64,000 nt of DNA from an uncultured Candidatus Saccharibacteria bacterium (GCA_964398775.1 CAYNND010000001.1:39528-103527), one strand, 5' to 3'; shown: positions 1 to 39,114, counted from the first letter of the stretch. The notes: a model not told the origin generated them from the letters alone. Program-made: numbers and translations.

Positions 1-77
1 GGACATACAGTAGCGATGATGATGCGAACCCCAGTCTGTCGGTAGGCGTTTGCTGTGTATCTCAAATAAACATCAAA

Positions 78-102
78 CCCCTGCCGGCTGGCGGGGGTTT
101 TT
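78..102 (+). terminator. Rho-independent terminator-like hairpin (8-bp GC stem incl. one G.U, 4-nt loop, T5 tail)
   Basis: cccctgcc-ggct-ggcggggg followed by ttttt; reverse complement also U-rich so may act bidirectionally. Confidence 0.55.
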
Positions 103-424
103 CATATCTGAACCATCACAGATATGCAGCACAGGGGGTGGCGATGAGCTACATTCCGAACGCTGCGCTCGAATCGGCGCAAGCTTGGGTGGAACGTCCC
201 GAAGGAGATATGTGGTTCACCCACGTCCCTGTCGGAAAAAAAGTGATTATCTCTCCCTGCGGTGAGAAATTCCACTTTGACCAACATCCACAGCTCAAGC
301 TGAAAACGAGCGATATACCACTGTATGTCTCTGAGGGACGCATCCGCGTTTGCACAGATGCATAAAGTGACAGGGCGAACTTCCGCAGAAGCTCGCCCAT
401 TTTTTTATATGCGATTCTGCACCG

Positions 425-2266
425 TTACTTGTACAGAACACGAAGTGCATTCAAGATGACTGCAACGTCGATTCCTTCTTGAATGAACGCGCCCATGACT
501 GGAGGTAGGTACCCGAAGAGCGCTGCAATCATCGCACAGACTGAGAGGATGATACCTGCGAGAATAGATTGCCGAGCTATAAACATTGTTCGCAGACTGA
601 TATCAAGCAAATCCTTTACTCGACTGATGTCATCCACCATGATGACTGCATGTGCTGATTCAGTAGAGGCAGTTTCTCCATGTGCACCAAGTGCTATACC
701 GACTGTCGCAGCGGCAAGCGCAGGCGCATCATTGATACCATCGCCCACCATTACCACGTGCTGACCTTCAGATTCCATCTTTTGAACTAGTTTTACTTTG
801 TCGTCAGGGAGACAGTTTGCGACGACTGATTCAACACCAGCGGCAGCTTGAACGCTGCGCGCACGTTCCTCAGAATCACCCGTCACGAGTGTCGTATGAA
901 ATCCTGCAGCTGCAATAGATTGCATCACACCTGCAACGTCAGGTCGTATGGTATCTTCGCATTCGATGACTCCGGCGAGCACGCCATCAATTGCAACGTA
1001 CACAACGATACCTCCTGCTTTCTTAATTGCTGCGACACGCTCTGTGACATCAGCAGCAATAGATACTTTCGAGTCAGATAGAAATGCTGCCTTACCGAGG
1101 AGCACACGCTTCCCTGATACAACGCCTTCTATTCCATATCCGTACTGTTCCTTCGCATGTTCAGGGTATGACAGGGTTGCGGCTTGTGCACGAGCGTACT
1201 GCACGACACCTCGCGCGATAATATGCGTTGAAAGCTGTTCGAGTGATGCAGCGTAGCGTAATACATCAGACTCACTAAATGTGCCCATGACATGGATACG
1301 TGCGACTTGAGGAATACCAAATGTCAGCGTTCCTGTCTTATCAAAGAAAAATTGTCGTGAGCGGCTAATACCCTCAAATACACCTCCATGTTTGACGATG
1401 ATACCTCGCTGCGCAGCGCGCGACATACCTGCAACAAACGCAATCGGCGCAGCAAGGATAAGTGGGCACGGCGTCGCAACAACAAGCACTGCGACCATGA
1501 GGTATGCACTCTCAAACCAGAAGTACGCGATTCCCGCTATTACAAGTGTAATGAGCGTAAAGACGACACTGTACTGGTCAGCAAGACGCACCAGTGGCGC
1601 CTTTGATTCTTCAGCGGAGCGAATGAGTCGAACAATGGAGGCATATGTCGTTTCTGCGTGGAGCTTTTCGACACTTACATGGATACTCTCACCTTGGTTT
1701 ACGGAACCTGCGTAGACGCGTGCGTTTACCGTAACATCACGAGGAACAGGCTCACCGGTAATCATCGATTCATCAAGCACACTTGTACCGAGCTGCACTG
1801 TCCCATCAACGGAGACTACTTCCTGCGGTCGCACAAGTACTATCTGCCCCAGTTGTACATCTGCAAGCGGCACTTCAGTAATATGCTCACCGTCAACGAC
1901 GTGCGCATGAGTTGGCATGTGCTCAAGGAGTTCTTTCAAGCTGCTGCGCGCCTTCCCTTCTGCGTAACGCTCAAGTGCTTCACCTCCTGAGAGCATGAGG
2001 AGTATCAAACCAGCAGCACCGTATTCTCCAATCAGCGTAGCAGAAGCTATCGCAAGCAATGCGATGAGGTCGACCCCAAACTCTTTACGCAAAATAGAAG
2101 TGACAATTTCATACAGGAGCGGCAGCGTTCCCAGAACAATTATAGAAATCAATGTGTACTGCGCAGGTAGCGAGTAGCCACTCCCCCAATACCAACCAAG
2201 TGCAGCAATAACAGCGCAAGCAATATAAGATTCCAAGCTCATGTATGAGCGAATTTGTGTAAACAT
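425..2266 (-). CDS. Heavy-metal translocating P-type ATPase, P1B-4-like (no N-terminal HMA domain, TPC motif in TM helix)
   Basis: DKTGTLT phosphorylation motif, GDGINDAPAL hinge motif, TGEP actuator motif, (T)PC in place of CPC, protein begins directly with TM helices, 613 aa. Confidence 0.85.
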   Translation of the reverse strand: MFTQIRSYMSLESYIACAVIAALGWYWGSGYSLPAQYTLISIIVLGTLPLLYEIVTSILRKEFGVDLIALLAIASATLIGEYGAAGLILLMLSGGEALERYAEGKARSSLKELLEHMPTHAHVVDGEHITEVPLADVQLGQIVLVRPQEVVSVDGTVQLGTSVLDESMITGEPVPRDVTVNARVYAGSVNQGESIHVSVEKLHAETTYASIVRLIRSAEESKAPLVRLADQYSVVFTLITLVIAGIAYFWFESAYLMVAVLVVATPCPLILAAPIAFVAGMSRAAQRGIIVKHGGVFEGISRSRQFFFDKTGTLTFGIPQVARIHVMGTFSESDVLRYAASLEQLSTHIIARGVVQYARAQAATLSYPEHAKEQYGYGIEGVVSGKRVLLGKAAFLSDSKVSIAADVTERVAAIKKAGGIVVYVAIDGVLAGVIECEDTIRPDVAGVMQSIAAAGFHTTLVTGDSEERARSVQAAAGVESVVANCLPDDKVKLVQKMESEGQHVVMVGDGINDAPALAAATVGIALGAHGETASTESAHAVIMVDDISRVKDLLDISLRTMFIARQSILAGIILSVCAMIAALFGYLPPVMGAFIQEGIDVAVILNALRVLYK

Positions 2267-2292
2267 ATTTCTATTGTACTCCTAAACGGAGT

Positions 2293-2988
2293 CTATTTAT
2301 AGAGCTCTTCTATGAGCGGCGCGATGCGCGCAGCAATAATCGCATATCCTGCATCATTTGGATGAATCGCATCAGACATATACTGCTCCCGTCCAATTAA
2401 ACCTTTCAAAATATTGGGTACATACCCCGTTTTATATTCTTCCGCAACTGCTTCAAATTCAGGCTCATAATGATCACTCACAATTCCACCACGAACACCA
2501 GCGATAATGACTACAGCACCTTCTCGTTGCAACGCAGTGACAATCTTACGTAGATTTGAAAACGTTTCTTCTTTAGGCACCTGCCGAAGATAATCGTTAC
2601 CCCCAAGAACAACAATGACAAGGCCGGGCTTCAGTTCAAGTACATCATCAATCCGATTGAGACCGTCAGATGTTGTATTCCCACTGATACCTTTATTGAT
2701 TATTCTCTTCCCAGTGAGCTTTGCGACTTGCGAGAACAAATCCTTTCCCTCTGAAGCGCCGATTCCTTGTACTAGCGAGTCTCCAAAGGCGACGATTGTT
2801 TCATTGCGTGGCGGATAATTTTTAAACGAAGAGACAGACTGACCACCACTGAACAACCACCACAGCGCAAGGAGCAATACGATGCCGCCACTGATCCACC
2901 ACACATACTTCATCTCCATGCCTTGTATCCTACCATGAGTGCCGTGTATACTACCTACAGCTTTCATCGAGAACGCAGGTAGAGGCAT
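2293..2988 (-). CDS. SGNH/GDSL-family hydrolase with N-terminal membrane anchor (likely true start at internal Met near 2913-2919)
   Basis: IVAFGDSLVQG (GDSL block), GGNDY block, N-terminal hydrophobic helix MKYVWWISGGIVLLLALWWLF. Confidence 0.7.
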   Translation of the reverse strand: MPLPAFSMKAVGSIHGTHGRIQGMEMKYVWWISGGIVLLLALWWLFSGGQSVSSFKNYPPRNETIVAFGDSLVQGIGASEGKDLFSQVAKLTGKRIINKGISGNTTSDGLNRIDDVLELKPGLVIVVLGGNDYLRQVPKEETFSNLRKIVTALQREGAVVIIAGVRGGIVSDHYEPEFEAVAEEYKTGYVPNILKGLIGREQYMSDAIHPNDAGYAIIAARIAPLIEELYK

Positions 2989-3097
2989 AGCTCAGTAACC
3001 TGCTCGCAACCGAAATCACGACGGTGCGCCACCTATGACGGATGAACCTCTGAAAGCTATTTTATTCTCGTTGGTGATTCAACGATAAAGAACATGT

Positions 3098-4048
3098 ATG
3101 AGAACAGCTGAATGTGTTACTCCGCGACACCCTGACAAACTTTGTGACCAGATTAGTGACGCCATACTTGATGCATGCCTGAAGGAAGATCCGTTTAGTC
3201 GCGTTGCAGTAGAGTCTATGGGAGGACACGGCAAAGTAGTCATCATGGGTGAACTTACCACAACTGCACACGTCGATTACAAAAAAGTTGCTGAGACTGT
3301 CATCGGCCCTGGGCTTGATATCATGGTGCATGTTGTAGAGCAAAGTAGAGAAATCGCGCAAGGTGTGGATGTTGGCGGCGCTGGAGATCAAGGCATCATG
3401 GTTGGATACGCAACAGATGAAACTCCTGAAATGATTCCTGCAGAGCTTGCATATGCTCGCCGCCTCGCGCAGTACTTGTATGCAAAATATCCAGTTGACG
3501 GAAAAACGCAGTGTACCTATGATGAGAAAAATAAAAAAATAACTGCACTCGTCGCGTCATTTCAAAAGACAACAGCGCAGCAACTTGAAGCAGACGTACG
3601 GACATGGCTTGCAACACAGGATGTCGCACATAACGATGTGGTGATTCACACGAACCCAGCTGGTGATTGGAACCAAGGAGGATTTGACGCAGATACTGGA
3701 CTTACTGGAAGAAAAATTGCGGTTGATTCGTACGGTCCACGTATTCCAGTTGGTGGTGGAGCATTTAGTGGTAAAGACGCTACAAAAGTTGATAGGAGTG
3801 CAGCATACATGGCACGACACGTTGCCGTAGATTTACTGAAGCAACGAAAAGCACACGAAGTATACGTCTATCTTGCCTACTCAATCGGTGTTGCAGAGCC
3901 GGTGCAGGCGACAGCGATTATCGATGGCAAAGAGGAGTCAGTGACTGGATACGACCTTACTCCCCAAGGTATCATCACTGCACTCGACTTACGCTCACCA
4001 CAATTTCAGAAGCGTGCTGCATGGGGTCACTTTGGCCACGAAGCCTAA
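3098..4048 (+). CDS. metK: S-adenosylmethionine synthetase (compact 316-aa form)
   Basis: HPDKLCDQISDAILDA N-terminal signature, GAGDQG, GGGAFSGKDATKVDRSAAYMAR C-terminal signature; shorter than canonical ~385 aa enzyme. Confidence 0.85.
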   Translation: MRTAECVTPRHPDKLCDQISDAILDACLKEDPFSRVAVESMGGHGKVVIMGELTTTAHVDYKKVAETVIGPGLDIMVHVVEQSREIAQGVDVGGAGDQGIMVGYATDETPEMIPAELAYARRLAQYLYAKYPVDGKTQCTYDEKNKKITALVASFQKTTAQQLEADVRTWLATQDVAHNDVVIHTNPAGDWNQGGFDADTGLTGRKIAVDSYGPRIPVGGGAFSGKDATKVDRSAAYMARHVAVDLLKQRKAHEVYVYLAYSIGVAEPVQATAIIDGKEESVTGYDLTPQGIITALDLRSPQFQKRAAWGHFGHEA

Positions 4049-4085
4049 ATAAGGCTCAAAACTTGCAATTCCCTCGAAACTACCG

Positions 4086-4844
4086 TTGAATGGCGGCTCT
4101 ATGGTGCGCATACTGATTTCCCTCCTCGCTGCGACATGCCTCCTCGTCTTGCCTGCTCATTCGCAGACACAAGATGAACTTCCATCTTCATTTATTGAAG
4201 TCACTCAAGGTTGTTCTGTGCAGGGTGGAAACTGCGTCAATATCCGCTCAGGACCTGGCACTGACTACCCTATTGTGAAGACGCTCCGCATGGGCGGAAT
4301 GCTTGAAGTTGATGCGGTTGCATACAGAGATGGCAGAGCGTGGTATAGAATCAAACATGATGACAACCTTCGCTACCCAGAGCGAGTCACAGGAAAGTGG
4401 TACATCGCAAGTGACTTCACGCGCATGCACATTGTCGGCCGTGAAAGCATTGCACCTGCCGCAAGTGCTCTCAACAAGAAAATCATAGTAAACCGTGCAA
4501 AACAGACATTGACTGCCTATGACGGTGCTGAGGTATTTATGCATACAAAAGTTTCAACAGGAATCACTGGAACACCGACACCAAGAGGCACGTTTACAAT
4601 CTTTAAAAAGAAACCGTCGCGCTACATGCAAGGACCACTGCCCCATGTGTCAGAAAAATATTTTGACCTCCCAGGCGTACCGTGGACTATGTACTTCACA
4701 AAAGATGGCGCGGCAATTCATGGAACGTACTGGCACCAATCATTTGGTACCCCTCGTTCAAACGGATGTATCAATCTCCCGGTAGACCTCGCTGAACGTC
4801 TCTACCACTGGGCACCTGTCGGAACTACTGTACAAGTGATATAG
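4086..4844 (+). CDS. L,D-transpeptidase (YkuD domain) with N-terminal signal peptide and SH3b-like domain
   Basis: catalytic block AIHGTYWHQSFGTPRSNGCINLP (His/Cys), signal peptide MVRILISLLAATCLLVLPAHS, SH3b-like GGNCVNIRSGPGTDYPIV. Confidence 0.8.
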   Translation: MNGGSMVRILISLLAATCLLVLPAHSQTQDELPSSFIEVTQGCSVQGGNCVNIRSGPGTDYPIVKTLRMGGMLEVDAVAYRDGRAWYRIKHDDNLRYPERVTGKWYIASDFTRMHIVGRESIAPAASALNKKIIVNRAKQTLTAYDGAEVFMHTKVSTGITGTPTPRGTFTIFKKKPSRYMQGPLPHVSEKYFDLPGVPWTMYFTKDGAAIHGTYWHQSFGTPRSNGCINLPVDLAERLYHWAPVGTTVQVI

Positions 4845-8147: not shown

Positions 8148-8942
8148 TCACCTAGTCGCAGCAAGTGCAGCGGTGATTGCGGCGCACAACTGAGCGCAGT
8201 GTTCGTCAGAGCGAAACACATGACCACACCCTGGGATAACCGTGAGCTGTTTGTGTGGACCTGGGATTGCATCAAAGAGGAGTTGCATGTGTGTAGTAAG
8301 GGTAACGGTGTCTTCTGCTCCCACGATGATAGTAACTGGCATCGTGAGTTTGTGCGCATCTGGTAAGAGTGAGTGTTGTAATCTATCTTCCATGTGTGAC
8401 CACGGGATTCTGCGCACACGCCCTGGTGTACTGACACTACTGTCTTCCCTCCAGCCTGTCTCTCTCCAGGTCTCAATAAACGCTGGGTCATGCGCGATAT
8501 GCGCCTGAAGAGTAAGCTCACCAGAAACTACTGGAGAGATAGGAAGTATGGATGCCACTCGCTCTGGGTATATCTCAGCATATCGCGCAACTGCATAGCC
8601 ACCCATGCTATGCCCGACGAGAGTCAGTGGTTGTGAATACCACGGCTGTTCAAGTAGCCATGCAAGTACATCTTCTAAGTCTTCATAGTGCTTCGTGAGT
8701 GTCGCCCGCTCTATATCACCATCACTTTCTCCAAAAGTATTTGTTGTATCAAAACGAAGTGTGGTGAATCCTTGCTCAAAGTACACCTGTGCGGCCGCAA
8801 CAATCATTTTTTGGTCCTTGGTTGCGCCAAGCCCATGTAGTACGACTGCGACACCGCGCGGGGCTTCATGCTTTCTCACCACAAGACACAGGCGCTCTTG
8901 TGCGCGATTGTGAATAAAGATTTTTTGTTCAGTGTCTAACAT
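8148..8942 (-). CDS. Alpha/beta-fold hydrolase
   Basis: nucleophile elbow LVGHSMGGYAVARYA; downstream His in GCGHVF. Confidence 0.75.
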   Translation of the reverse strand: MLDTEQKIFIHNRAQERLCLVVRKHEAPRGVAVVLHGLGATKDQKMIVAAAQVYFEQGFTTLRFDTTNTFGESDGDIERATLTKHYEDLEDVLAWLLEQPWYSQPLTLVGHSMGGYAVARYAEIYPERVASILPISPVVSGELTLQAHIAHDPAFIETWRETGWREDSSVSTPGRVRRIPWSHMEDRLQHSLLPDAHKLTMPVTIIVGAEDTVTLTTHMQLLFDAIPGPHKQLTVIPGCGHVFRSDEHCAQLCAAITAALAATR

Positions 8943-9988
8943 GTTGGATCTGGCATCCTCGTGTAGAGGTCTGCGATGCGCTGCATCATTGCTTCAGTGA
9001 GAACAACATCTCCGGCATCAATATCGATAGTGAGCTGTTCTAGTGAAGTAGCTCCGAGAATTACAGAAGTAGTGAATGGTCGCGTTGCAGCAAACGCGAT
9101 TGCAAGCTGCCCAGGCTTCAGTCCAAACTCACGTTCAAGTGCTACATACGCAGCAAAGGCACGCTGTGCCTCATCATGCCCTGGGTTATAGCGTGGTCTG
9201 TTTCTGCCAGTTCCTGAAAAGCGGGCACCTGCTGGTTCTGCACCGTTGAGGTACTTTCCTGTGAGCACTCCCATGTTGAGAACTGAGTACGGGAGAAATG
9301 CGATAGACTCGCGCATACACATTTCAGAGAGCCCGATTTCAAATGTACGATTGGTGAGTGAGTACTGGTTTTGAATGGAAGCGATACGTGCATACCCTTT
9401 CTCACGTGCGACGCGGAGGTACTCCATAACACCCCATGGGTTTTCATTTGATACACCGATGTATCGCACCTTACCTGCCTTCACAAGTGCGTCGAGCCCT
9501 GCAAGTGTTTCTTCAATAGATGCTCCGTCATCGCCATCAAGTGATTGCACGCCGCGGACACCGTTGTTGTTCATGTGTCTGTCAGGGAAATGTACCTGAT
9601 AGAGGTCGAGGTAGTCAGTCTGAAGTCGAGTGAGGGTACCATCAATAGCTGCCGCAATACTTTGTGTTGTAAGGCCAGCGCTCGCATCACGTGTGCCGAT
9701 AAAGTCGGCCATACCTCGCGCTGACACTTTTGACGCAAGGAAAAAGTCATCGCGCTTCTGTCGCTTTCCTATCCAGTTTCCTATCATAGTCTCAGTCGTT
9801 CCCTGCTTCGTCTTATCTGGTGGGATTGGATACACCTCTGCAGTGTCTATCATGGTGATACCGCGACTCAGTGCATAATCAAGCTGTGCATGCGCTTGTG
9901 CCTCATCACATTGCTGCCCGAAATTCATTGTTCCGAGGCAGAGCTTTGATACCTCTATACCAGTATTTGAGAATTGTGTTTTTTGCAT
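8936..9988 (-). CDS. Aldo/keto reductase (Tas-like NADP(H)-dependent oxidoreductase); ORF-track start at 10003 is GTG, ATG at 9986-9988 more likely
   Basis: MQKTQFSNTGIEVSKLCLGTMNFG N-terminus and overall AKR fold length. Confidence 0.8.
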   Translation of the reverse strand: MQKTQFSNTGIEVSKLCLGTMNFGQQCDEAQAHAQLDYALSRGITMIDTAEVYPIPPDKTKQGTTETMIGNWIGKRQKRDDFFLASKVSARGMADFIGTRDASAGLTTQSIAAAIDGTLTRLQTDYLDLYQVHFPDRHMNNNGVRGVQSLDGDDGASIEETLAGLDALVKAGKVRYIGVSNENPWGVMEYLRVAREKGYARIASIQNQYSLTNRTFEIGLSEMCMRESIAFLPYSVLNMGVLTGKYLNGAEPAGARFSGTGRNRPRYNPGHDEAQRAFAAYVALEREFGLKPGQLAIAFAATRPFTTSVILGATSLEQLTIDIDAGDVVLTEAMMQRIADLYTRMPDPTC

Positions 9989-10011
9989 CGCAGTAGTGTA
10001 CACGCAAAGTC

Positions 10012-10079
10012 GCTAGACAAGAAATCTCCGGACAGGACTATTTTGCTCGAGGTATTCGTAGGAGATGCCGCAAAAATAT
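10012..10079. repeat. Degenerate direct repeat copy of the ilvA 3' end (last 19 codons plus stop), 5' of the AT-rich islet
   Basis: ~58 of 68 bp align to 11336-11393; both copies translate on the minus strand to GISYEYLEQNSPVRRFLV* with 6 nucleotide differences, all synonymous. Confidence 0.8.
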
Positions 10080-10109
10080 ATGTGCTTGTCTCTATTATTG
10101 CAAATAATA

Positions 10110-10556
10110 CTAGCCCACAATAACATTGTCCCCATTATGGATTATTACTGATTCATAATTAGGCATGTCATTCAGAATATCAACTTTTGAACCAGAACGC
10201 ATTTTGAGGGTCAGCCCCCCGCTTTCATGCCTCAGAGCATTTTCTATTTCATCACCGATTAGCGTGCACAGTACACCACCATTAATTTTATAGTTTTCTA
10301 TTTTGTAAATAATACCGTTGGAATCTGTGAATATTATGTCTCCTCCCATCTCAATAAAGAAAGACTGCTCGGACATATCTGACTCAAAGAATATATCAGC
10401 TTTATGCCTGCCTATCCTTAGTGTCTCAACTTTCCTACCCACAAGAAAGCTTAAATCTATATTTTCAGGTAAACCTAGCATAAAATTAATTTGTTTTTTT
10501 AGGCGCTGGTAATGGAATATGTGTTTGCGAATTAGTGATATGGGGACAGTCACCAT
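10110..10556 (-). CDS. Hypothetical protein (islet cargo)
   Basis: 148-aa ORF, AT-rich codon usage distinct from flanks; no known motif. Confidence 0.4.
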   Translation of the reverse strand: MVTVPISLIRKHIFHYQRLKKQINFMLGLPENIDLSFLVGRKVETLRIGRHKADIFFESDMSEQSFFIEMGGDIIFTDSNGIIYKIENYKINGGVLCTLIGDEIENALRHESGGLTLKMRSGSKVDILNDMPNYESVIIHNGDNVIVG

Positions 10557-10558
10557 AT

Positions 10559-10768
10559 TTATTTGTTCTTTGAACCTTTCGGTCTCCCTGTCCCTCGCAA
10601 CGTTTGTCCCAACTTGTGTGTCTCGACCATGACATTGACCCGTGCATCAGTACTAGACGGTGTTCCTTTGTTGACTGATGCTCTGAGTGTTTTCAGTATA
10701 TCTTGATTGTCTTTGCGATTCACCCAAAAATATGGTGACTGTCCGAATATTTCTATTTTATTATGCAA
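10559..10768 (-). CDS. Small hypothetical protein with C-terminal AT-hook-like tail (islet cargo)
   Basis: 69 aa; C-terminal RGTGRPKGSKNK; its N-terminal IFGQSPYFWV segment is duplicated as a start-less fragment at 11210-11335. Confidence 0.3.
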   Translation of the reverse strand: MHNKIEIFGQSPYFWVNRKDNQDILKTLRASVNKGTPSSTDARVNVMVETHKLGQTLRGTGRPKGSKNK

Positions 10769-11209
10769 TTAAGGATATATATCAATACTCAGCCCAAGAC
10801 CTAAAGAAGCCATCTTTTTTATTATGTCATACTCTATAACTTCTCCTGAATTACCCTCAAGAAAGATGCCTACGGAAACAAGTAGCGCACCGCCTGAATC
10901 TACATGCCTTAGTAACGACCCCTTTAGTGGTTCTAGTTCACCAACAAGAAGCAACAGCTCTTCAGAAAGTGCCTTATCGCTACTATATATTTTTTCTTTT
11001 GAATGCGCGAAACAGCAGTATGAGTCAGTGTGAACACCCACAAGCGGACCACCATCTTGAGCAAGTCTTGCATTTCCTATATTCCAACTATTTACAAAGT
11101 GAAAGTGTGTTGTGTTCGCGATATCACCTTCGATAACTTCTATGCTCTGGGATGGGTGAGACACCCTCAATGATATTTTATACGTATAAGGATTCATATT
11201 TTTCAGCAT
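10769..11209 (-). CDS. Hypothetical protein (islet cargo)
   Basis: 146-aa ORF; no known motif. Confidence 0.4.
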   Translation of the reverse strand: MLKNMNPYTYKISLRVSHPSQSIEVIEGDIANTTHFHFVNSWNIGNARLAQDGGPLVGVHTDSYCCFAHSKEKIYSSDKALSEELLLLVGELEPLKGSLLRHVDSGGALLVSVGIFLEGNSGEVIEYDIIKKMASLGLGLSIDIYP

Positions 11210-11336
11210 GTATGAATTGGTCCATGGTTAATTATATCACCTTTTGTTGTACCAGTGATTATGTCTCCATTTGGCGCCTTCCCAACCCAAAAATATGGTG
11301 ACTGTCCCAATTATTGTAAGCAAATGCAGTACTTTG

Positions 11337-12581
11337 CTAGACAAGAAATCTCCTCACTGGGCTGTTTTGCTCGAGGTATTCGTATGAGATGCCAAGGGTA
11401 GTCATACGCTCCATGAGTGGCTGCAAGTCATCTTTATGAGTCAACTCAACACCGACGAGCGCTGGGCCGCGCTCCTTGTTACTCTTCTTTACATACTCAA
11501 AGAGCGTGATGTCGTCCCGTGGACCGAGCGCGTTGTCGAGAAACTCTCGCAGCGCTCCAGGACGTTGACTGAACTCAACTACAAAGTAGTGTTTCAAGCC
11601 TTTGTACACGAGTGCGCGCTCCATCACTTCTGGGTAACGACTGATGTCATTGTTCCCTCCTGATATAACACACACAACAGTCTTACCTTTGATTTCATCT
11701 CTAAGTTGTGCGAGTGCAGCGACAGAAAGTGCTCCTGCTGGTTCTGCGATGATGCCATCTGCTTGGTAGAGCCCTATCATCGCTTCGCACACTGCGCCTT
11801 CTGGAGTTCTCACTACCTGCTGCATCAAGTGCCGCGCTGTTTCAAACGTAAGTGTACCAATCGTAGCAACTGCTGCGCCGTCGACAAATTTGTCTATGTT
11901 TTGTACCGTCACTGGCTTTCCTGCTGCAAGCGCTGCCGTCATCGATGCAGCTCCTTGCGGCTCAACACCGATGATATCAGTTGCGGGCGAAACTTCTTTG
12001 ACATAGGTAGATACCCCAGCAACAAGACCGCCGCCGCCAATTGGAACAACGACAACATCTGGTTTCTGCTCAAGTTGTCGCAGAAACTCTTCTGCGACAG
12101 TTCCTTGCCCCGCTGCTACATACTCATTATCAAAGGGATGCACAAAGACACGGGATTCTTTTTCGCAAAACGTTTTTGCATGTTCATACGAATCATCAAA
12201 GGTGTCGCCGATAAGCTCTATCGTTACCCATGCACCACCAAGTACACGAACGCGTTCAACTTTTTGCTTCGGAGTATTTTTCGGCATGTATATCCATCCT
12301 TTCACCGAAAGTTTCGCACAGCTAAATGCAACACCTTGTGCGTGGTTTCCCGCGCTGGCACACACGACACCACGGTCTCGTTCGCTGTGTGAGAGTTTTG
12401 AGATACAGTTGTACGCACCACGAAGCTTGTATGAACGAACTATCTGCAAATCTTCGCGCTTTAGAAAGATGCGCGCACCGTAGAGCTCAGAGAGACGCTG
12501 ATTGTACTGCAGTGGCGTTTCCGTAACGACACCTTTGAGGCGTTTGTGTGCATCTCGCACAAGTTGTACTGAAAGTGTCAT
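11337..12581 (-). CDS. ilvA: Threonine dehydratase (PLP-dependent, with C-terminal ACT-like regulatory domain); likely start at the internal Met (MTLSVQLVRDAHKRL)
   Basis: PLP-fold blocks (SAGNHAQGVA, GGGGL), ~415 aa with C-terminal regulatory extension; start adjusted so it abuts the ridA stop. Confidence 0.8.
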   Translation of the reverse strand: MTLSVQLVRDAHKRLKGVVTETPLQYNQRLSELYGARIFLKREDLQIVRSYKLRGAYNCISKLSHSERDRGVVCASAGNHAQGVAFSCAKLSVKGWIYMPKNTPKQKVERVRVLGGAWVTIELIGDTFDDSYEHAKTFCEKESRVFVHPFDNEYVAAGQGTVAEEFLRQLEQKPDVVVVPIGGGGLVAGVSTYVKEVSPATDIIGVEPQGAASMTAALAAGKPVTVQNIDKFVDGAAVATIGTLTFETARHLMQQVVRTPEGAVCEAMIGLYQADGIIAEPAGALSVAALAQLRDEIKGKTVVCVISGGNNDISRYPEVMERALVYKGLKHYFVVEFSQRPGALREFLDNALGPRDDITLFEYVKKSNKERGPALVGVELTHKDDLQPLMERMTTLGISYEYLEQNSPVRRFLV

Positions 12582-12582
12582 A

Positions 12583-12960
12583 CTAGTGTGTGAGTGCTGT
12601 GCAGGAAATCTCCACGCGCGCATCTTTTGGTAAACGAGCAACTTCGACAGTCACACGTGCAGGCAATACTGGTCCAATAAAGTATGTTGCATACACTCCG
12701 TTGAACTTTGCGAAATCATTCATATCCTTTAAATACACTTCTGTTTTAACTACATCCGTGAGTGTTACCCCTGCTGCATTGAGCACCGCTTTCAGGTTTT
12801 CACATACCTGCCGTGTTTGTTCTTCTATATCCCCACCTATGAATGTTCCGTCCTGTTTGAGCGGTATTTGTCCTGAACAGAATAAAAATCCTTGCGCACG
12901 AACTGCTTGAGAATAAGGGCCGACGGCTGCTGGTGCTTGTGTTGTATGAATATGTTCCAT
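12583..12960 (-). CDS. ridA: RidA/YjgF-family reactive enamine/imine deaminase
   Basis: [27 protein letters not shown]-terminal signature; 125 aa; immediately upstream of ilvA (tdcB-tdcF-like pairing). Confidence 0.8.
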
Positions 12961-12989
12961 AATATTTTAAAAATTGCAGTAAAAGAAAA

Positions 12990-13010
12990 GCCCTCAGATG
13001 GAGGGCTTTT
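12990..13010 (-). terminator. Terminator-like hairpin (gccctc-agatg-gagggc) with U-tracts on both strands
   Basis: 6-bp GC stem followed by tttt (+) / ttttcttttact (-); lies downstream of minus gene 13150-13710. Confidence 0.4.
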
Positions 13011-21423: not shown

Positions 21424-22362
21424 CTAGAAACTTTCGCGACATGATGCACTATCACGCTCTGGTGTGTACATGATACCGAAATGACTCGTTGTTTCCTTGA
21501 CTGTAGAGTCATTCAGGAGTGTTGCAGAGTTTGTATGTGCGAAAAAGTACGGGTGCGGTGTTTCGTGCCCCGCTGCAAGTGTTGTCGCAAGCCACAGACA
21601 GGTCGGGCAGTCACTCTGCTGTGGATTCCTGAGCCGTTTAATATACTCAAGCCGTCGTGCACAGAGCGCGGTCTGTGTATCGAGGTCCATCATCTGCGCA
21701 TCTAGAAGCGGCAGGTAGTGCGAAAAGTCAGTACTCAGTACGAGCACAGTCCGTGTATCAAGCAGAAGAGACTCAAGAATACTCGCAAGTGCAATACGCT
21801 GTGCACTCAGTTTCGATTCATCGATAGAAACAACGACAGGAATGACACTTGCTTCAGGAACATAGTGGCGAATAAATGGGACAACGCTGTAAATGCCGTG
21901 CTCCTTTGAGAAGAGGTCGGACTGCGCAAACACACCTGACGTCAGTAGGCGTTGTACTGAAGGAGCGTTGATAGGAATATCACCAAAAAATGTTCCGAAC
22001 GAGCCATACGATGTACATGCAAATTCAGGACATCGCTTGTAGTGATCAGGTGAGAGCACTATGAAGCGTCGTGCCTGCGGTTGCGTTTTCGCGATACGCG
22101 CTATACCTTCCGCGATGACCTCATGTGCAACAAGGTGATGCGGGACCACTACGATGCGTCCCTTATGTGTATCAAGTGGACGACTAGAGCGTTCAAGAGA
22201 TGTGATGCCACTCACCACTGCTCCATCGAGCGCAGCATCATGAATAGTGTAGTAGGGGCTTGATGTGTAGCGCAGTACAAATAGACTGACAACTCCAAGC
22301 ACACACAAACCACCAATTATCGTGATATGAGTGGTTGATACCAGACGGGAAGTTTTGGCCAT
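21424..22362 (-). CDS. MEMO1/AmmeMemoRadiSam-B-like family protein with N-terminal membrane anchor
   Basis: VVVPHHLVAHE and LSTDFSHYL blocks resemble MEMO1-family motifs; N-terminal TM helix. Confidence 0.45.
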   Translation of the reverse strand: MAKTSRLVSTTHITIIGGLCVLGVVSLFVLRYTSSPYYTIHDAALDGAVVSGITSLERSSRPLDTHKGRIVVVPHHLVAHEVIAEGIARIAKTQPQARRFIVLSPDHYKRCPEFACTSYGSFGTFFGDIPINAPSVQRLLTSGVFAQSDLFSKEHGIYSVVPFIRHYVPEASVIPVVVSIDESKLSAQRIALASILESLLLDTRTVLVLSTDFSHYLPLLDAQMMDLDTQTALCARRLEYIKRLRNPQQSDCPTCLWLATTLAAGHETPHPYFFAHTNSATLLNDSTVKETTSHFGIMYTPERDSASCRESF

Positions 22363-24872
22363 GATGTATATGGTGTGTATGTAATCTGATAATCTCCGCT
22401 CTCAGTATAGAAGCGCTGCTGCCACGCTTCGTCTGTCAGTCGTATATCACTCAGAAACTCATAATGACTGTATGTCAGTCCTGTCGTGAGACGAGGACCA
22501 TTTGCATCTTTCACTGCGACAAAGATGAGAAACGGTACGCCAGTTCCCTCCTCGACGATTCCTTCATCGCTTGTATGAATATCTGCGACGACTGCGGCTC
22601 GCTTGTCCTTGATAGGAAGTATCGGACCTTCAAGTGATAGTGGCAGCGCATTCATCATCATCGTGATAAGTCCACGCCTCATGTCTTCTGCGCGACTCAG
22701 TGCTGCAACAGCTTGTTTGTCTGCATTGATGACTGACTCGACGCCAGGACGTGTGACTGAAGATGATGGGTCAATAAAGTTCTGCACGCATTGTGGGTCA
22801 TTCTCAAGCGGTACCCCGCGACTCAGTGTCGCCTCAGTAAATCCAGTATTTGCAAGCTCAAGCGTTGCATATTCATGCGCAGCGCGCAGAAGTGTGATAT
22901 ATGTCTGCAACTTTTCCGCGTTTTGCAACTGTATCGAACGGTCACGATAGATGGTAGAGAGTTGTTCTGCAGTATCAATGAGTTGCGCATATACCGCAGG
23001 CTGCGGCTCGACATATCCATAGACTGGTTCTGGTATCGCTCGTGTATCGCATGTGCCATCATCTCCACCACCACCCTTTTCTGCAAACGATTGCTTCGCG
23101 TAGAGAATGTTAGTATGACGCAACTCAGTCCAAAAACCAGACGCTGTCATGAGTGACTTACTACCCCACAGTGGTGACTGCATAAACGCGGGGAGTTCCT
23201 GCACGTGCTTTTGCTGCCACGAGAATAGAGTCGCTATCGAAGAGAGGATGCCAGTTACTTGATTTTTCTTCCAGTAGTCTGCTCCCCAATCATGAGCTTC
23301 ATTGGTCAGCTCACTCAAGCGTGTATCTATCGCTTGCTTGTGCGTTGGATAAAACGGTAACGTTCCCAACTGTGAACGCGCGTAGTCGGAGCCGAGAATA
23401 GTCATGATTTGTACTGATGATGCTGTGCGTGGCAGCTTCATGCCGTCTACCTCAGGTGCTTCATCACCCTGAGTGAGTCGTCCCGTCCAGTATGAATCAG
23501 GAATAAACTTCTGACTAAAGAAACGCATGCCACGCGTCTTATCGAGCACATCTTTCATGGTCACTATGCCGACACTTGTATAGAATGCAGGAAGTCCCTT
23601 GATGCGTGCGGCCGGCTTTGCTGTTGCAAGAAATGCAGCACGCGCTGCCTCGTCATACACATCATCTTCAAGCTCTTTCACGGCTCGTGCATAGTCACCT
23701 GCATCGAGGTCATCACTTTCTCCGACAAGTTGTTTCAACAAATCACCCATTGCGCTGTATTGCGTGAGTAACTCGGGGTGATTGTTCATCAGTGTCCCAA
23801 TAGCTATGGAATACTTACTCAAATCTTCAGAACGAGTAAAGAACGGTATTTGTTGGTACCACTGTACCGCACGGAAGTATTGGCGGCGGAGTGAACTACT
23901 TGTGTAAGTACCACGCACAGTAAACAGTGAAAATGGCACTGCAAAATCTATATCTCCTGCAAGCTTCTGATACTCATCCGAAAAGATAGCAGGCACATCT
24001 TTCGCAGGCGCATCATATATCATGTCGATATCATGCAGCACCGCACGCTCACTTGCTGCATCAAGTTTGAGTGATCGCACATATGCTTTTACCGCGCTGC
24101 GAGCATCTGCACTCTCGTCTTTCTTTTTAAATGCAGCAAAGAAATCTTCGTAGCTCATTTCATGAGTACCCTTCCAATACTCTTCAGGCGTCGGAGGAAC
24201 AGTCGCAACCGAAAGGAGCGCATGAGGCACCGCAAAGTACGCACGCACTTTCGCCCACTGAGCACGCTCTGTGTCTGTCTTTGCTGCACGATATGCTGCA
24301 TCTGCATCTGCGTACAAAGTACGTGTCATACTGCGCACCTGAGGAAACAAATATGTATTTTCAGTCTCTTTGAGTAACTCAACTGAAAGGACAGAAAAGA
24401 GATGCATGAGCACATCACTTGATATGAAAGGTGCCTGAGCAAGTGTTCGCTCTTTTACGTCTACTGGCCCACCAATGCTGTCGTAGAGCGCAAAAAATTC
24501 TCGCAAGTTCTCACCGACTGAAACAGGCACGAGCTTACTCTGTGTGAGCGGCTTCAAAATAAACTTATGTGTCTCCAGATGTTTCTTATCTGCTGCAGAG
24601 AATGTCACTCCAAATTCCTGTTCGATTGCATCTATATTACTAAGTTCTTGTATTGAAAAAGGTGCACGCACGCTGCTATCTATGGCACCCTCCTCTCTCG
24701 CATCGCTCGGTATACCAAGTGTCGCTGCTGGGGTTACCTGGACCCCTGTTGTGGGAGGTGCTGAAGTAGTTTGTGAAGATACGATGAGGTAGAGCGCTCC
24801 ACAGAGTAAACAAAATGGGATAATGATGCCGAGCAACCATGTCTTTGATCGCACGGGGGTTGTTGGTTCCAT
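22317..24872 (-). CDS. Large (851 aa) hypothetical exported protein, N-terminal TM anchor (possibly DUF3160-like)
   Basis: long uninterrupted ORF, N-terminal hydrophobic helix, no catalytic motif recognised. Confidence 0.5.
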   Translation of the reverse strand: MEPTTPVRSKTWLLGIIIPFCLLCGALYLIVSSQTTSAPPTTGVQVTPAATLGIPSDAREEGAIDSSVRAPFSIQELSNIDAIEQEFGVTFSAADKKHLETHKFILKPLTQSKLVPVSVGENLREFFALYDSIGGPVDVKERTLAQAPFISSDVLMHLFSVLSVELLKETENTYLFPQVRSMTRTLYADADAAYRAAKTDTERAQWAKVRAYFAVPHALLSVATVPPTPEEYWKGTHEMSYEDFFAAFKKKDESADARSAVKAYVRSLKLDAASERAVLHDIDMIYDAPAKDVPAIFSDEYQKLAGDIDFAVPFSLFTVRGTYTSSSLRRQYFRAVQWYQQIPFFTRSEDLSKYSIAIGTLMNNHPELLTQYSAMGDLLKQLVGESDDLDAGDYARAVKELEDDVYDEAARAAFLATAKPAARIKGLPAFYTSVGIVTMKDVLDKTRGMRFFSQKFIPDSYWTGRLTQGDEAPEVDGMKLPRTASSVQIMTILGSDYARSQLGTLPFYPTHKQAIDTRLSELTNEAHDWGADYWKKNQVTGILSSIATLFSWQQKHVQELPAFMQSPLWGSKSLMTASGFWTELRHTNILYAKQSFAEKGGGGDDGTCDTRAIPEPVYGYVEPQPAVYAQLIDTAEQLSTIYRDRSIQLQNAEKLQTYITLLRAAHEYATLELANTGFTEATLSRGVPLENDPQCVQNFIDPSSSVTRPGVESVINADKQAVAALSRAEDMRRGLITMMMNALPLSLEGPILPIKDKRAAVVADIHTSDEGIVEEGTGVPFLIFVAVKDANGPRLTTGLTYSHYEFLSDIRLTDEAWQQRFYTESGDYQITYTPYTSWPKLPVWYQPLISR

Positions 24873-32963: not shown

Positions 32964-33293
32964 CTATTTCAACTCCTCGCAGGCCTTGCCGTCTTTGTCA
33001 GCATCAAGTCGGTGCGGGTCAGATGTAGGACCACCCTCGCGGATGAAAAAGTCCTGTGCCTCGCGCTGTGTGCGAAAGTCCTTACAGTCCTTATCGACAA
33101 ATCCTCCGACAAACTTCTTCGGCGCCGCTTTAGCCGGGGCTCGTACTGGAGCCTTCTTTGGCGTGTGGCAGTGATACTCCCCTGTCTTTTTATTCGTATG
33201 ACACCCCTTTGCATCCGTCCCACCTGAGTGGGCAAACGTGACGACTGGAAGCACAACCAAAAAGCATATTGCAGCTATGACGGAGCGGTTCAT
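32964..33293 (-). CDS. Secreted Excalibur calcium-binding domain protein
   Basis: signal peptide; C-terminal DPHRLDADKDGKACE (DxDxDGxxCE); basic Lys/Pro-rich linker. Confidence 0.6.
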   Translation of the reverse strand: MNRSVIAAICFLVVLPVVTFAHSGGTDAKGCHTNKKTGEYHCHTPKKAPVRAPAKAAPKKFVGGFVDKDCKDFRTQREAQDFFIREGGPTSDPHRLDADKDGKACEELK

Positions 33294-33346
33294 AGGTCCA
33301 CCCTACACCTGTAGAGAGTTGCGTGCAAATACTGAGAAGATTTTTA

Positions 33347-33781
33347 CTACTTAGCTTTTTCTTGCATCTTTTTCAGGTCCTGCCATGAGTAGCGAACAAC
33401 ATTACCGGTAGCATTTACGGAGAAAACATGCATTAGTAGTTTTTTTGAAACTTGCCAAGGCAGTCGTCGCAAAGCAATTTTTGCTGATTTTTCAGGAAGT
33501 CCGATGCCATAATAATAGCGTGTAGTTCCTCCAGACTTCATGCGTGAAATAATTTGTCCAAGCGAATAAATAAATGATACTTCACTTGAACTTTTTCCCT
33601 TTCCTTGTCCTTTGCACTCAATCAAAAAGTAGCGTGAATAACGATTGTGCCGAACTTTTATGTCAACTCCCCTCTCTCTGAGTGCGCCAAACTGCAAATT
33701 AGTACCCCATTCATTTCTTGAGAGGAATTTTATGATTGATTTTTTTACAAATTCTTCAGGCATATGTATTCTAATTACCAC
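33347..33781 (-). CDS. Small PD-(D/E)xK nuclease-like protein translationally coupled to hsdR
   Basis: E...RGVDIKV...FLIECKG matches the E / D / (D/E)xK order of the restriction-endonuclease fold; overlaps the hsdR stop by 7 nt. Confidence 0.4.
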   Translation of the reverse strand: MVIRIHMPEEFVKKSIIKFLSRNEWGTNLQFGALRERGVDIKVRHNRYSRYFLIECKGQGKGKSSSEVSFIYSLGQIISRMKSGGTTRYYYGIGLPEKSAKIALRRLPWQVSKKLLMHVFSVNATGNVVRYSWQDLKKMQEKAK

Positions 33782-36582: not shown

Positions 36583-36584
36583 AT

Positions 36585-37793
36585 CTATTTTTTATTGAGA
36601 GACTCAGGCACAAACCCATGCTCGATGAGAAGTTGTGTCAGTTCACGAAAGAGATAGTTTGCAAAGAAAGAAATTGTATAGATACGCGCTCCTTTTTGTA
36701 TCGGCTTAAGCATCTTCTTACCTACCAACTTTGCAATAATTCTTGATCGCTGCACAGAGCTCTCTTCTGAAAGCAGCTTACCGATATCATTCGCTTTTAT
36801 AGTCATACTCGGTGAGCTAGCCACAACATACTTTAGTAACGTATGTTCAACAGGCGTGATGTATTTATTCTCCAGGGAGCGAGCAAGCATAGGGAGCAAA
36901 ATAGTATCTGCAAGATATTTCCTGTCTAGCAACTTATCAATCTTTGCAATTTCTCTTGCAAGACCTTTGAGCACATAGAGGCACCATTCAAGCATTGCTT
37001 CCTCGGTCCCCGTATCAGCTTTCGCGAGCATATCATAGTAGACATTTCTATCATCACAAAAGATTGCAGTTGGATTGAGGATACGCCCAGATTTTACACT
37101 AAAACCTTGTTGTAATAGTTGCGCATAGGTGAGCATGCGCACAGTACGACCGTTTCCATTATCAAATGGATGAATTACAGAAAAACGATGGTGTGCAATG
37201 GCAATTACGAGCAGATGGAATTGAGTTGGGTATTTATCATTTATGAAACTAAATAATTCTTCGGATTCCGCAGCGATGAGCGTCGCGGGTACTGTTTTTA
37301 ATTGCGAATTTTTTACACTTACATGCTCTTCACGATACGAGCCAGCAGAGGCAGAGCCTTCACCTCCATCTTTTGGCAACGTTAGACCATTTACTATTAT
37401 CTTGTGTAGCTCAGAGATTATGACCCTTGTGATCGGTGTGCCGACTTTTACATTAGCTTCAAGGAAATCTATGGCATCTTCTACGTTCGCAATTTCTCTC
37501 ATGGATTCGTCTGAATCTGGCGATTTTCCTGCGATAACCTTTTCAGCATATTCGGAGATTGTCGTTCGATTGCCCTCTATTCGGTTTGATCCCAAACTTT
37601 CAAGTATTTGAAATATTTCTTTTACCTGAAAGAATACATGGGGAGGCACAGTTCCACTCAGTTTCTTTTCTCTCAATTTTTCTAACTCAACAATGACTGT
37701 GTTTAACTCACTGTCAAACGATGGTTTTGGTATTTTCGCAAGGTTTTTCTCAGTTGTCATAAGTATATTATCTTCAAAATCGAAGTATAACAT
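36585..37793 (-). CDS. Fic/DOC-family protein with N-terminal inhibitory helix motif, embedded between hsdS and hsdR
   Basis: HPFDNGNGRTVR active-site motif; SNRIEGN fits the (S/T)xxxE(G/N) inhibitory motif; C-terminal wHTH-like region. Confidence 0.8.
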   Translation of the reverse strand: MLYFDFEDNILMTTEKNLAKIPKPSFDSELNTVIVELEKLREKKLSGTVPPHVFFQVKEIFQILESLGSNRIEGNRTTISEYAEKVIAGKSPDSDESMREIANVEDAIDFLEANVKVGTPITRVIISELHKIIVNGLTLPKDGGEGSASAGSYREEHVSVKNSQLKTVPATLIAAESEELFSFINDKYPTQFHLLVIAIAHHRFSVIHPFDNGNGRTVRMLTYAQLLQQGFSVKSGRILNPTAIFCDDRNVYYDMLAKADTGTEEAMLEWCLYVLKGLAREIAKIDKLLDRKYLADTILLPMLARSLENKYITPVEHTLLKYVVASSPSMTIKANDIGKLLSEESSVQRSRIIAKLVGKKMLKPIQKGARIYTISFFANYLFRELTQLLIEHGFVPESLNKK

Positions 37794-37884
37794 TTAACAT
37801 CGGGTAAGCAAATATGGCTTTATATATGTGTTTTATGCATTTGTCTCAAAAACATTATTTAACATTTTGAGAAAAGTACATTTA

Positions 37885-39114
37885 TCACACAAACATTTTT
37901 TGTAGCAGTCCTTTTTTCCACATCTCCGCCGTCTTAACTTGTAGATCCTTATGCTCTATGAGGTAGTCAATTGACTGCAAGAACTCTCGAATTAACATTT
38001 GTTCTTCCACTGTTACTGGTACAGTTACGACAATCTCCTTAAAGTGTGTGTATTTTAGATTCCACGTATCTGATACGAGACCTTGTGAGTAACGGTAAAA
38101 ATCAAAAATCGTTCGAGGAAGTTTAAAAAAATAACCGAAGAAATCTGAATCGACATTCTTCGGGGTAACTACCGTATATGCAGGACTGACTATGCCTTCA
38201 TGTCTTGAAACTCCTGCTGCTCCTTGCCACATTCGCATGGTGTTGTAAGCGATATCTCCTACACGGACAATTTTATAATTCGATTTATCTTCGCTGGAAC
38301 TATCTTTTTTTACCGAGCTATCATATCGGGTCACTCCATTTTTAAGAGTTACTGAGAGCAGTTCATAATCACCGTCAGTCGCTCTTTCTGCTCTTTCTTT
38401 CAATAAATCTCCCAATTTGCAGCTTTTCCATGCAGGGAAATTTTTACCATTCTCATCCTTAAAACGTACTTCTCGCGAGAAAATTTTTTGCATCACTCCT
38501 CGTTTATATTCTTCGAGTTTGATCTTTTGAGCTTTGAGGTTTTCAATTAATTTATCAACGTCTTGCAAGAAAATTGATATTCTATTTTGCTCGTCACGAT
38601 TTGGATATGAGGTTAGAATTGAAGAGACTACACTCCACTCTGCTCTTGGCATCTTAGAACCTATAGTAATTTGACTCTGATATGCAAATCTATTTCCTTG
38701 AATGAAGTAGAAGAGAAATGCAGCCTCAACTGTTTTTGGTTTAATTACCCAAATTTCTGTTGTTGCAATACCGTCAAAGTCGGTCAGAATATACTTCCTC
38801 AGATTTGGACGAAGTTTTCCAAAAAGTATTTGATTTTTGTGGAATACATTTTTAATACTTTTTAGACTTTTCGAGTCAATCATATCTAGTAATCTGCCAG
38901 TATTTTTTTCAATATTCTCCAATTCGATGCATTTTTCGTATGTATTTGATATTTGAGGATTGTATTTTTCATTTGAAAGCATAGCGATTTTACCAAAGTC
39001 ATCGGCATTCCATTCATTTGTAAACTCTGGAAAACGCAATTCAGGAACATTCTTCTGTTGTGTAGAAGACTTTTTCATAGCTAAAATGGCATTTTGATTC
39101 CAAGTTCTTTGCAC
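37885..39114 (-). CDS. hsdS: Type I restriction-modification S subunit (two target-recognition domains)
   Basis: two TRD halves separated by conserved coiled-coil spacers (LKAQKIKLEEYKRGVMQKIFS; C-terminal KTAEMWKKGLLQKMF). Confidence 0.8.
   Translation of the reverse strand: MQRTWNQNAILAMKKSSTQQKNVPELRFPEFTNEWNADDFGKIAMLSNEKYNPQISNTYEKCIELENIEKNTGRLLDMIDSKSLKSIKNVFHKNQILFGKLRPNLRKYILTDFDGIATTEIWVIKPKTVEAAFLFYFIQGNRFAYQSQITIGSKMPRAEWSVVSSILTSYPNRDEQNRISIFLQDVDKLIENLKAQKIKLEEYKRGVMQKIFSREVRFKDENGKNFPAWKSCKLGDLLKERAERATDGDYELLSVTLKNGVTRYDSSVKKDSSSEDKSNYKIVRVGDIAYNTMRMWQGAAGVSRHEGIVSPAYTVVTPKNVDSDFFGYFFKLPRTIFDFYRYSQGLVSDTWNLKYTHFKEIVVTVPVTVEEQMLIREFLQSIDYLIEHKDLQVKTAEMWKKGLLQKMFV

Follow-up and report, generated by a model that had tools for sequence, protein, structure and literature searches.

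A low-GC islet between two silently diverged copies of the ilvA 3′ end in a Saccharibacteria genome

Cis-mobilizable elements (CIMEs) of streptococci are integrase-less, measure 1.2-13 kb, carry attachment (att) repeats and sit at the 3′ ends of the housekeeping genes fda, rpsI and rpmG (PMC7563491). A locus with a similar layout is described here in a stretch of 64,000 nucleotides (the window) from an uncultured Candidatus Saccharibacteria bacterium (GCA_964398775.1 CAYNND010000001.1:39528-103527). In it, a small islet separates the threonine dehydratase gene ilvA from the aldo/keto reductase (AKR) gene downstream, and a copy of the ilvA tail stands on either side. Like a CIME or a decayed integrative and conjugative element (ICE) or integrative and mobilizable element (IME), the islet is small, contains cargo only, is bounded by direct repeats of which one lies over the intact 3′ end of a gene, and has empty sites in relatives. 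However, the att sites of CIMEs match those of co-resident ICEs or IMEs with identified tyrosine integrases, whereas no helper is known for the islet. Its repeats moreover differ at 6/58 positions, its host is a Patescibacterium, and its interior consists of cassettes headed by a repeated motif. Islands and prophages at the 3′ ends of tRNA and tmRNA genes share with it a repeat that is the gene's own 3′ end and an element that supplies a functional replacement. In contrast to those, the target is here a protein-coding tail and the mimic is constrained at the codon level; it is because of this constraint that a pattern of silent-only differences becomes visible.

The cargo recalls further systems. 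In rhs loci and the type VI secretion system effector-immunity arrays of Vibrio cholerae (PMC5361080), DNA arriving with a homologous 5′ anchor supplies a new 3′ end together with immunity genes, and the resident end is shifted downstream as an orphan fragment. Orphan immunity genes and toxin-tail stubs accumulate there, and a dedicated recombinase is unneeded. In those arrays a toxin is displaced and the new tip differs, whereas here it is the ilvA tail that is displaced, the peptide stays the same and there is no toxin gene. The recombinase-associated acquired interbacterial defence arrays of Bacteroidales (rAID-1; bioRxiv 10.1101/471110) consist of low-GC, co-directional genes of immunity families with no cognate toxin, bear signs of horizontal acquisition and have repetitive intergenic sequences, called “reminiscent of integrons” in that work. 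The islet resembles them with its two open reading frames (ORFs) on the minus strand, a GC content of 38% and four motifs. It differs in having only two genes, one of them alone from an immunity family, ilvA upstream, no recombinase found and a host from another phylum. Integron cassettes, and the clusters of attC sites lacking integron-integrases (CALINs), are likewise short, promoter-poor and co-directional, with imperfect inverted repeats between them and no nearby integrase. In the islet, by contrast, each ORF has the motif on its upstream side, with arms that stand ~24 to 167 nt apart, and attC cores are missing; nor does integron insertion duplicate 58 bp of its target.

Each component of the locus has precedents, namely duplicated-end islands, integrase-less remnants, orphan immunity islets and displaced 3′ ends, and no new mechanism is proposed. 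The unusual part is how they are combined: a Patescibacterium carries, at the tail of a metabolic gene, an immunity islet of two motif-headed cassettes that lacks a recombinase and whose scar can be read through its silent sites. We hold with good confidence that a foreign islet occupies the ilvA/AKR junction, that ilvA is intact, that the other tail is a recent and still undecayed orphan, and that the two tails come from different alleles of the clade.

The duplicated ilvA tail and the empty sites of relatives

The junction is made up of the following features.

10012..10069, minus strand: left copy (L), a displaced, non-functional ilvA tail just upstream of the AKR gene, with the native 24-nt spacer after it
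11336..11393, minus strand: right copy (R), the last 18 codons, the stop codon and 1 nt of the working ilvA
11337..12581, minus strand: ilvA, threonine dehydratase, 414 aa, intact (Pfam PALP 5.8e-81, Thr_dehydrat_C 1.5e-26)
8936..9988, minus strand: AKR, aldo/keto reductase, 350 aa from MQKTQF (Pfam Aldo_ket_red 2.5e-67), the native downstream neighbour of ilvA
10070..11335, minus strand: inserted islet, 1,266 bp, absent from the lineages L084, L085, L086 and L087-89

The direct repeat (10012-10069 / 11336-11393) is 58 nt long, identical at 52/58 positions (E = 7.6e-15, self-blastn) and the strongest repeat of the window. On the minus strand both copies read GGC ATC TCN TAC GAA TAC CTC GAG CAA AAY AGY CCN GTS MGG AGA TTT CTT GTC TAG C. 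They encode GISYEYLEQNSPVRRFLV, a stop and 1 nt more, and thereby span from 54 nt before the ilvA stop to 1 nt past it. A preliminary description of this DNA had recognized the repeat itself correctly, with a left copy ending at 10079 instead of 10069 and a peptide of 19 aa instead of 18 aa plus the stop. Its central observation, that the two tails differ only synonymously, stands: all six differences between R and L (TCA/TCC, AAC/AAT, AGC/AGT, CCA/CCT, GTG/GTC and AGG/CGG) are silent and both copies are in the ilvA frame. Five of the differences fall on third codon positions and one on a first (CGG/AGG), and the copies are free of indels relative to each other. The chance that a random single-base change in this stretch is synonymous is only 0.21-0.28. 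The copies have blocks of 8 (GGCATCTC), 20 and 18 nt without any difference, and no block is marked as a crossover point. The Logan assembly of run SRR12404947 (L001) covers the whole structure with 5,249 nt at 100% identity.

Exact look-ups of IlvA gave no match. Within the species-level collection, the genome that comes nearest is L002, a bin from an uncultured Candidatus Saccharibacteria bacterium, whose IlvA is 87% identical. Four closer lineages were recovered by searching with degenerate DNA that encodes the tail peptide and then with proteins. Their IlvA proteins are 95% (L084), 94% (L085), 92% (L086) and 91% (L087-89) identical to that of the window. The gene order RidA-ilvA-AKR-hydrolase-DUF5666-TspO… is common to all four, and each has a single tail copy and the same 24-nt spacer between ilvA and AKR. 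In L084, positions 4659-4717 align to both window copies, with flanks ~80% identical on either side (blastn). The comparison of syntenic ilvA-AKR junctions that had been suggested as a check was run and came out as anticipated, with 4/4 related lineages empty. A shared islet would have pointed to an old, fixed duplication; none of the four lineages carries one. The islet (10070-11335) also shows the dip in GC content that had been described, with 38.4% against 49.6% and 47.3% in the flanks and 47.5% in the whole window. Because four lineages have ilvA, 24 nt and AKR in succession with a single tail, the islet is, on this comparative sequence evidence, an insertion. It is a small, horizontally acquired islet that left an ordinary and tidy scar in a host that is probably a member of the Patescibacteria, Saccharibacteria.

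Across the clade, the slot between ilvA and the alpha/beta-hydrolase gene varies. It is empty in L002 (7239-7268) and L092 (5248-5277), holds AKR in L084-L087, and in L093-L095 contains an unrelated 168-aa gene with no Pfam match (L093 4070-4727). No duplicated ilvA tail is visible in L093.

Between R and L, the nonsynonymous divergence (dN) is 0 and the synonymous divergence (dS) 0.82; tails of different lineages have dS of 0.17-2.7, the between-species tails taken for comparison 0.41-1.06, and the whole ilvA against its nearest relatives 1.15-1.5, which is not much higher. The divergence of R and L is accordingly about that of tails from different species. Every state found at the six variable sites also occurs in functional tails of relatives. 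R is nearest to the L085 allele (4 differences), and L to that of L084 (4), then L087 (5). Since dN is 0, dS is as between species and the orphan copy is without decay, both tails must have gained nearly all of their differences as parts of working ilvA genes. There is a slight preference for R as the copy that came in, given the likeness of L to the allele of L084, which is the nearest relative overall.

Cargo and repeated motif of the islet

After R, the minus strand carries 17 nt, motif A, a 35-codon frame, ORF2, motif B and a 69-codon frame. These are followed by the inverted motif C over the start of ORF1, by ORF1 itself, the degenerate motif D and the L copy.

11285..11318, minus strand: motif A (…AATAATTGGGACAGTCACCATATTTTTGGGT), 17 nt after the R copy
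11203..11310, minus strand: 35-codon frame, (L)GQSPYFWVGKAPNGDIITGTTKGDIINHGPIHTC and a stop, aligning to the extreme C-terminus of the Rhs-type toxin of L090 that precedes P0124
10769..11197, minus strand: ORF2, 142 aa from MNPYTYK, a distant DUF4279 / FdL-Imm5-type predicted polymorphic-toxin immunity protein
10722..10755, minus strand: motif B, heading the second unit
10559..10768, minus strand: 69-codon frame with TTG start, beginning with the motif-encoded GQSPYFWV and ending in the AT-hook-like RGTGRPKGSKNK
10530..10563, plus strand: motif C, inverted, overlapping the ORF1 ATG
10110..10556, minus strand: ORF1, 148 aa, beta-rich, immunity-like by position only
10070..10103, minus strand: motif D, degenerate (GCAATAATAGAGACAAGCACATATATTTTTGC), abutting the left repeat copy

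Earlier, the interior had been described as three small orphan ORFs. Two substantial, co-directional ORFs (148 and 142 aa) were found in their place, and the 142-aa protein belongs to a large family and is no orphan. A picture of merely decayed orphan ORFs no longer fits an islet that has at least one predicted toxin-immunity cassette and a repeated motif.

ORF2 has one 44%-identical homologue (P0003), and a two-sequence profile retrieved 665 relatives among 1.84 billion representatives. While ORF2 itself gives no Pfam match above threshold, Pfam DUF4279 is matched by 30/42 sampled relatives. In polymorphic toxin systems, DUF4279 is the immunity family called FdL-Imm5 (PMC9424270), and it has also been annotated as providing immunity to an Rhs-Ntox33 effector (PMC13304343). 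The nearest outgroup of ORF2, P0124, is encoded 34 nt after an ORF in which the end motif of the Rhs core (…NPQSLNSYSYANDNPITKKDATGR…) is found together with a C-terminal toxin region (L090). Another relative, P0125 (L091), is encoded downstream of another Rhs-type toxin end, where small co-directional genes form an array that includes a second DUF4279 gene. The AlphaFold2 (AF2) model of ORF2, with a pLDDT of 97, matches generic ferredoxin-like folds only; the modelled fold agrees with the immunity family and is not specific to it. It is likely that the cargo includes at least one immunity-type cassette, with a protective function predicted from sequence.

The L091 locus can also be described on its own (1-4598, Logan SRR31089947). 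Eight small co-directional genes, two of them DUF4279-like, come after an Rhs-type toxin end (…NPQSLNSYAYANGNPITKKDPSGR… and a C-terminal domain), and the locus is a typical polymorphic-toxin immunity array.

The 35-codon frame before ORF2 shares 12/35 identities with the end of the L090 toxin (E = 5e-4, BLASTP), a score reached by 10/5000 shuffles. The alignment is only suggestive; the frame is probably what is left of the 3′ end of ORF2's cognate toxin gene. No intact cognate toxin gene is present at the islet, which has no large ORF and only the 35-codon stub.

ORF1 found only itself among 5.8 billion proteins and has no match in PADLOC, PHROGs or NCBIfam; neither ORF1 nor ORF2 has relatives in IMG/VR. 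An assignment of ORF1 to DUF6188 was rejected (E = 0.045, below threshold), and no mention of DUF6188 was found in the literature. The AF2 single-sequence model of ORF1 failed (pLDDT 37). As for the 69-codon frame, it is not called as a gene in the Logan contig and has neither a family match nor detectable relatives. It was rejected as a toxin remnant for lack of similarity to the L090 or L091 toxins. The RGTGRPKGSKNK at its end closely matches the eukaryotic HMGA AT-hook core GRPKGSKNK.

The sequence AAATATGGTGACTGTCC has exactly 3 occurrences in 64 kb, all of them in the islet; chance would give 0.25, and that with up to three mismatches permitted. Counting the degenerate D there are four copies of a ~30-nt motif, three direct (A, B and D) and one inverted (C), with the consensus AATAAT-N-GGGACAGKCAC-ATAT…, and one copy heads each unit. 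Motifs B and C enclose 167 nt as the arms of an inverted repeat that is perfect over 17 bp (DNA fold z = -4.4). The only close ORF2 homologue is encoded on a contig of 660 nt, and its metagenome of origin also gave the empty site L084. The homologue is preceded by a hairpin of the islet motif with an 11-bp stem (z = -4.7), and the motif is seen twice there. Because ORF2 and this homologue are only 44% identical, the motif is conserved at the DNA level. It occurs neither elsewhere in the window nor in the syntenic loci or L090/L091. One exact match of the motif 17-mer in IMG/VR (L082) was not used as evidence, and no Rfam family was found in 9800-11600.

Several identities of the motif were tried. 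As a protein-coding repeat (GQSPYFWV) alone it fails, given the inverted orientation of one copy and the lack of a conserved frame in the L083 copies. An integron attC site was dismissed for want of RYYYAAC/GTTRRRY cores on either strand of 10000-11400, and a dif/Xer-like site for want of an internal dyad by eye. Compared with a miniature inverted-repeat transposable element (MITE), the 229-bp unit 10530-10758 has the inverted repeats (17 bp perfect; 31 nt at 84%) with no target-site duplication visible, and no other copies of it exist in the window or the related loci. A scan for promoters and terminators gave weak consensus matches only. One of these, a sigma-70-like TTGCAA-17-TATATT at 10075-10103 on the minus strand, lies inside motif D and is aimed at the displaced tail and AKR, as a consensus match only. 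This promoter-like element could restore transcription of the AKR and hydrolase genes after the insertion split them from ilvA. More generally, the motif could be a promoter or operator, a recombination site or a MITE-like end. A bolder and improbable proposal is that the islet samples an undescribed cassette system of Patescibacteria, in which motif-headed toxin-immunity genes would move without a linked recombinase and settle at the ends of housekeeping genes. Such cassettes would bring along a silently recoded copy of the tail and would amount to an integron-like or rAID-like device for gathering immunity genes in ultra-small epibionts.

Routes to the present structure

The slight favourite, held with low confidence, is that a tail-bearing element was integrated in the manner of a CIME by a recombinase acting in trans. 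The incoming DNA, circular or tail-bearing, would have brought its own last 18 ilvA codons from another lineage of the clade. It would then have undergone Campbell-type, tail-against-tail recombination with the chromosomal ilvA. One tail would thereby complete ilvA, and the other would be pushed 1.3 kb downstream as a dead 58-bp fragment beside AKR. Because a complete tail stands on the ilvA side, the gene would never have been broken. The agent would most likely have been a tyrosine recombinase, supplied in trans because the islet encodes none. The islet itself may be cis-mobilizable (CIME-like) or a decayed integrative element, and the crossover core could be GGCATCTC at the 5′ edge or one of the 18-20-nt blocks. 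By analogy, the geometry of the repeats is that left by elements which integrate at gene 3′ ends and supply a replacement end.

A second 3′-end scar is found at the tRNA-Gln(ttg) gene (45326-45397), whose last 23 nt (unit 45379-45401) are repeated exactly at 45554-45576, 175 nt downstream. An inverted partial copy (AGCCAGACTTGGAATCGAAC) lies between these repeats at ~45443-45462, and there are no genes between them. The repeats look like att-type footprints, a “microCIME”-like scar or pseudo-tRNA fragments. Since tRNA-Gln shows this other scar, att-type events are plausible in the genome. Beside it, three ORFs (446, 421 and 348 aa; 42161-44822 and 46441-47487) have no Pfam or NCBIfam match.

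Several results weigh against integration by a recombinase in trans. No integrase, transposase or excisionase domain was found in the islet or in ~38 window ORFs, a search that did not take in the other ~72 kb of the 136-kb source contig or the rest of the genome, where a helper could lie; for the islet ORFs, these domain searches agree with the lack of an integrase noted at the outset. In metagenomes of the Joint Genome Institute (JGI), the tail-coding pattern was found only in the empty site L084, and in IMG/VR not at all. A second ilvA tail within ~6 kb was sought in the other fetched ilvA loci, with only 13-17-nt chance matches. The islet proteins are known from one genome only, which leaves them without a known element family. 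GGC and AGA occur in both copies and are absent from the four close relatives, and these shared codons fit an origin of both copies in one lineage at least as well. Flanks that are mosaics of foreign tracts, together with natural competence, make recombinase-free routes realistic. Finally, the synonymous-only pattern is expected equally under the att-type, homology-anchored and overwriting routes and is therefore not specific evidence for site-specific integration. Of the site-specific integration put forward in the preliminary description, the insertion, the foreign composition and the functional-type tails were thus confirmed; a recombinase, a tail-mimic element elsewhere and the uniqueness of the att inference were not.

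The recombinase-free routes draw on one further feature of the locus.

9777..10011, minus strand: recombination tract, spacer and first ~210 nt of AKR, ~94% identical to L087

Beyond ~9777, identity to L087 falls to about 70-75%, and L087 is otherwise among the most distant lineages (59-82%). In sliding windows, the RidA region (~12626-13000) is ~93% identical to L086 versus ~78% elsewhere. Standing out from a background of 60-82%, these tracts indicate frequent homologous exchange between species-level lineages of the clade, with an ambiguous direction for the L087-like transfer. Saccharibacteria are naturally competent (PMC10633639, PMC10187176).

On this background, the structure might have arisen by homology-anchored 3′-end displacement, in which transformed linear DNA is taken in without a site-specific recombinase. 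The donor would be a lineage with the islet in its post-ilvA slot. Its ilvA would serve as the anchor, and the far end would join illegitimately 58 bp before the resident stop. The donor ilvA end and the islet would then replace the junction, and the resident last 58 bp would survive downstream. Such a course seems unlikely, with these points in its favour: the natural competence already cited (PMC10633639, PMC10187176), flanks that are mosaics of foreign tracts (93% and 94% against a background of 70-82%), a post-ilvA slot that varies across the clade, the lack of any recombinase in the islet or the ~38 window ORFs, and a cargo that bears a probable displaced toxin tail. The model has been published for toxin/immunity loci (PMC5361080), and it explains an intact ilvA without an evolved mimic. 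The arrangement typical of C-terminal displacement, an intact gene, foreign DNA and then a co-oriented 3′ fragment of the same gene, is the one found here. However, ordinary recombination is more frequent by orders of magnitude than the homology-facilitated illegitimate kind (PMC5361080). No donor-type tract could be detected in ilvA upstream of R, where no lineage exceeds ~87% identity, and a donor lineage with ilvA directly followed by the islet was not seen. The joint TTTTTGC|GGCATC (motif D | L) permits at most 2-3 nt of microhomology. Homology-facilitated illegitimate events also usually delete recipient DNA and do not duplicate it, which counts against this route. A different and rather doubtful history is that the insertion made identical or near-identical tails and that later homologous recombination with an islet-less lineage recoded one of them, the likeliest target being the left copy and the first ~235 nt downstream. 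The incongruent, ~94% L087-like tract begins at the left copy or within it and runs to near 9777. Its boundary is the islet edge, as expected if a donor without the islet has no homology beyond that point. The L087/L084 state is found in the left copy at 4/6 variable sites, the lineage-specific GGC and AGA are kept in both copies, and foreign tracts are frequent in the region. Yet the L087-like exchange might be an export from the host lineage. The left copy differs from L087 at 5/58 positions, including AGA vs CGA between the matching codons and the tract, and its AAT and AGT are not L087 states. Overwriting would moreover leave the origin of the duplication itself unexplained.

Far less credible is that the ilvA end was duplicated locally, in tandem fashion, and then decayed neutrally around AT-rich DNA native to the locus; nothing beyond the bare existence of a direct repeat speaks for it. 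If R were constrained and L neutral after duplication in situ, each difference would be synonymous with a probability of ~0.39, and 6/6 with ~0.003 (our calculation). Instead of the ~60% expected, 0/6 differences are nonsynonymous (p about 0.003), and there are no indels between the copies. A dS of ~0.8 would imply ~17 replacement changes in the neutral copy, and 0 are seen. The intervening DNA, which this reading takes as native, is missing in four relatives and foreign in its composition. These sequence data effectively refute a local duplication with neutral decay, in line with the earlier argument that it would not keep the peptide. An assembly chimera joining two strains at the 58-mer is very improbable. 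The source is a metagenome-assembled contig, and such repeats can mislead assemblers. However, the Logan assembly L001 is identical across both junctions, though probably built from the same reads. The islet sequence is unique, the junction of motif D and the left copy has no repeat for a false join, and a false join cannot give two different tandem tails around unique DNA. The probability left after the listed routes covers neutral decay, an assembly artefact and routes not listed.

Other window features and biological meaning

Elsewhere in the window, a low-GC block on the minus strand (33200-41500; 32-41%) contains a type I restriction-modification system into which a Fic gene is inserted.

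33775-36582, minus strand: HsdR
36585-37793, minus strand: Fic
37885-39114, minus strand: HsdS
39081-40685, minus strand: HsdM

ARAGORN also calls a “tRNA-Pyl(cta)” of 100 nt at 22125-22224 on the minus strand, inside the Memo-like (21424-22362) and DUF3160 (22317-24872) ORFs. This call is probably a false positive.

If the reading of the islet as an acquired immunity cassette array between two silently diverged tails is right, the locus would be a clean natural case of an insertion scar in protein-coding DNA that can be dated and sourced from silent sites alone. It would also offer a concrete test, in competent Saccharibacteria, of homology-anchored illegitimate recombination against trans-acting integrases. 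For the organism, it would mean that an ultra-small, host-dependent Patescibacterium gathers orphan toxin-immunity genes, as gut Bacteroidales and vibrios do. This would bear on the survival of such epibionts under contact-dependent warfare and on the group's mobile DNA, which has been little studied.

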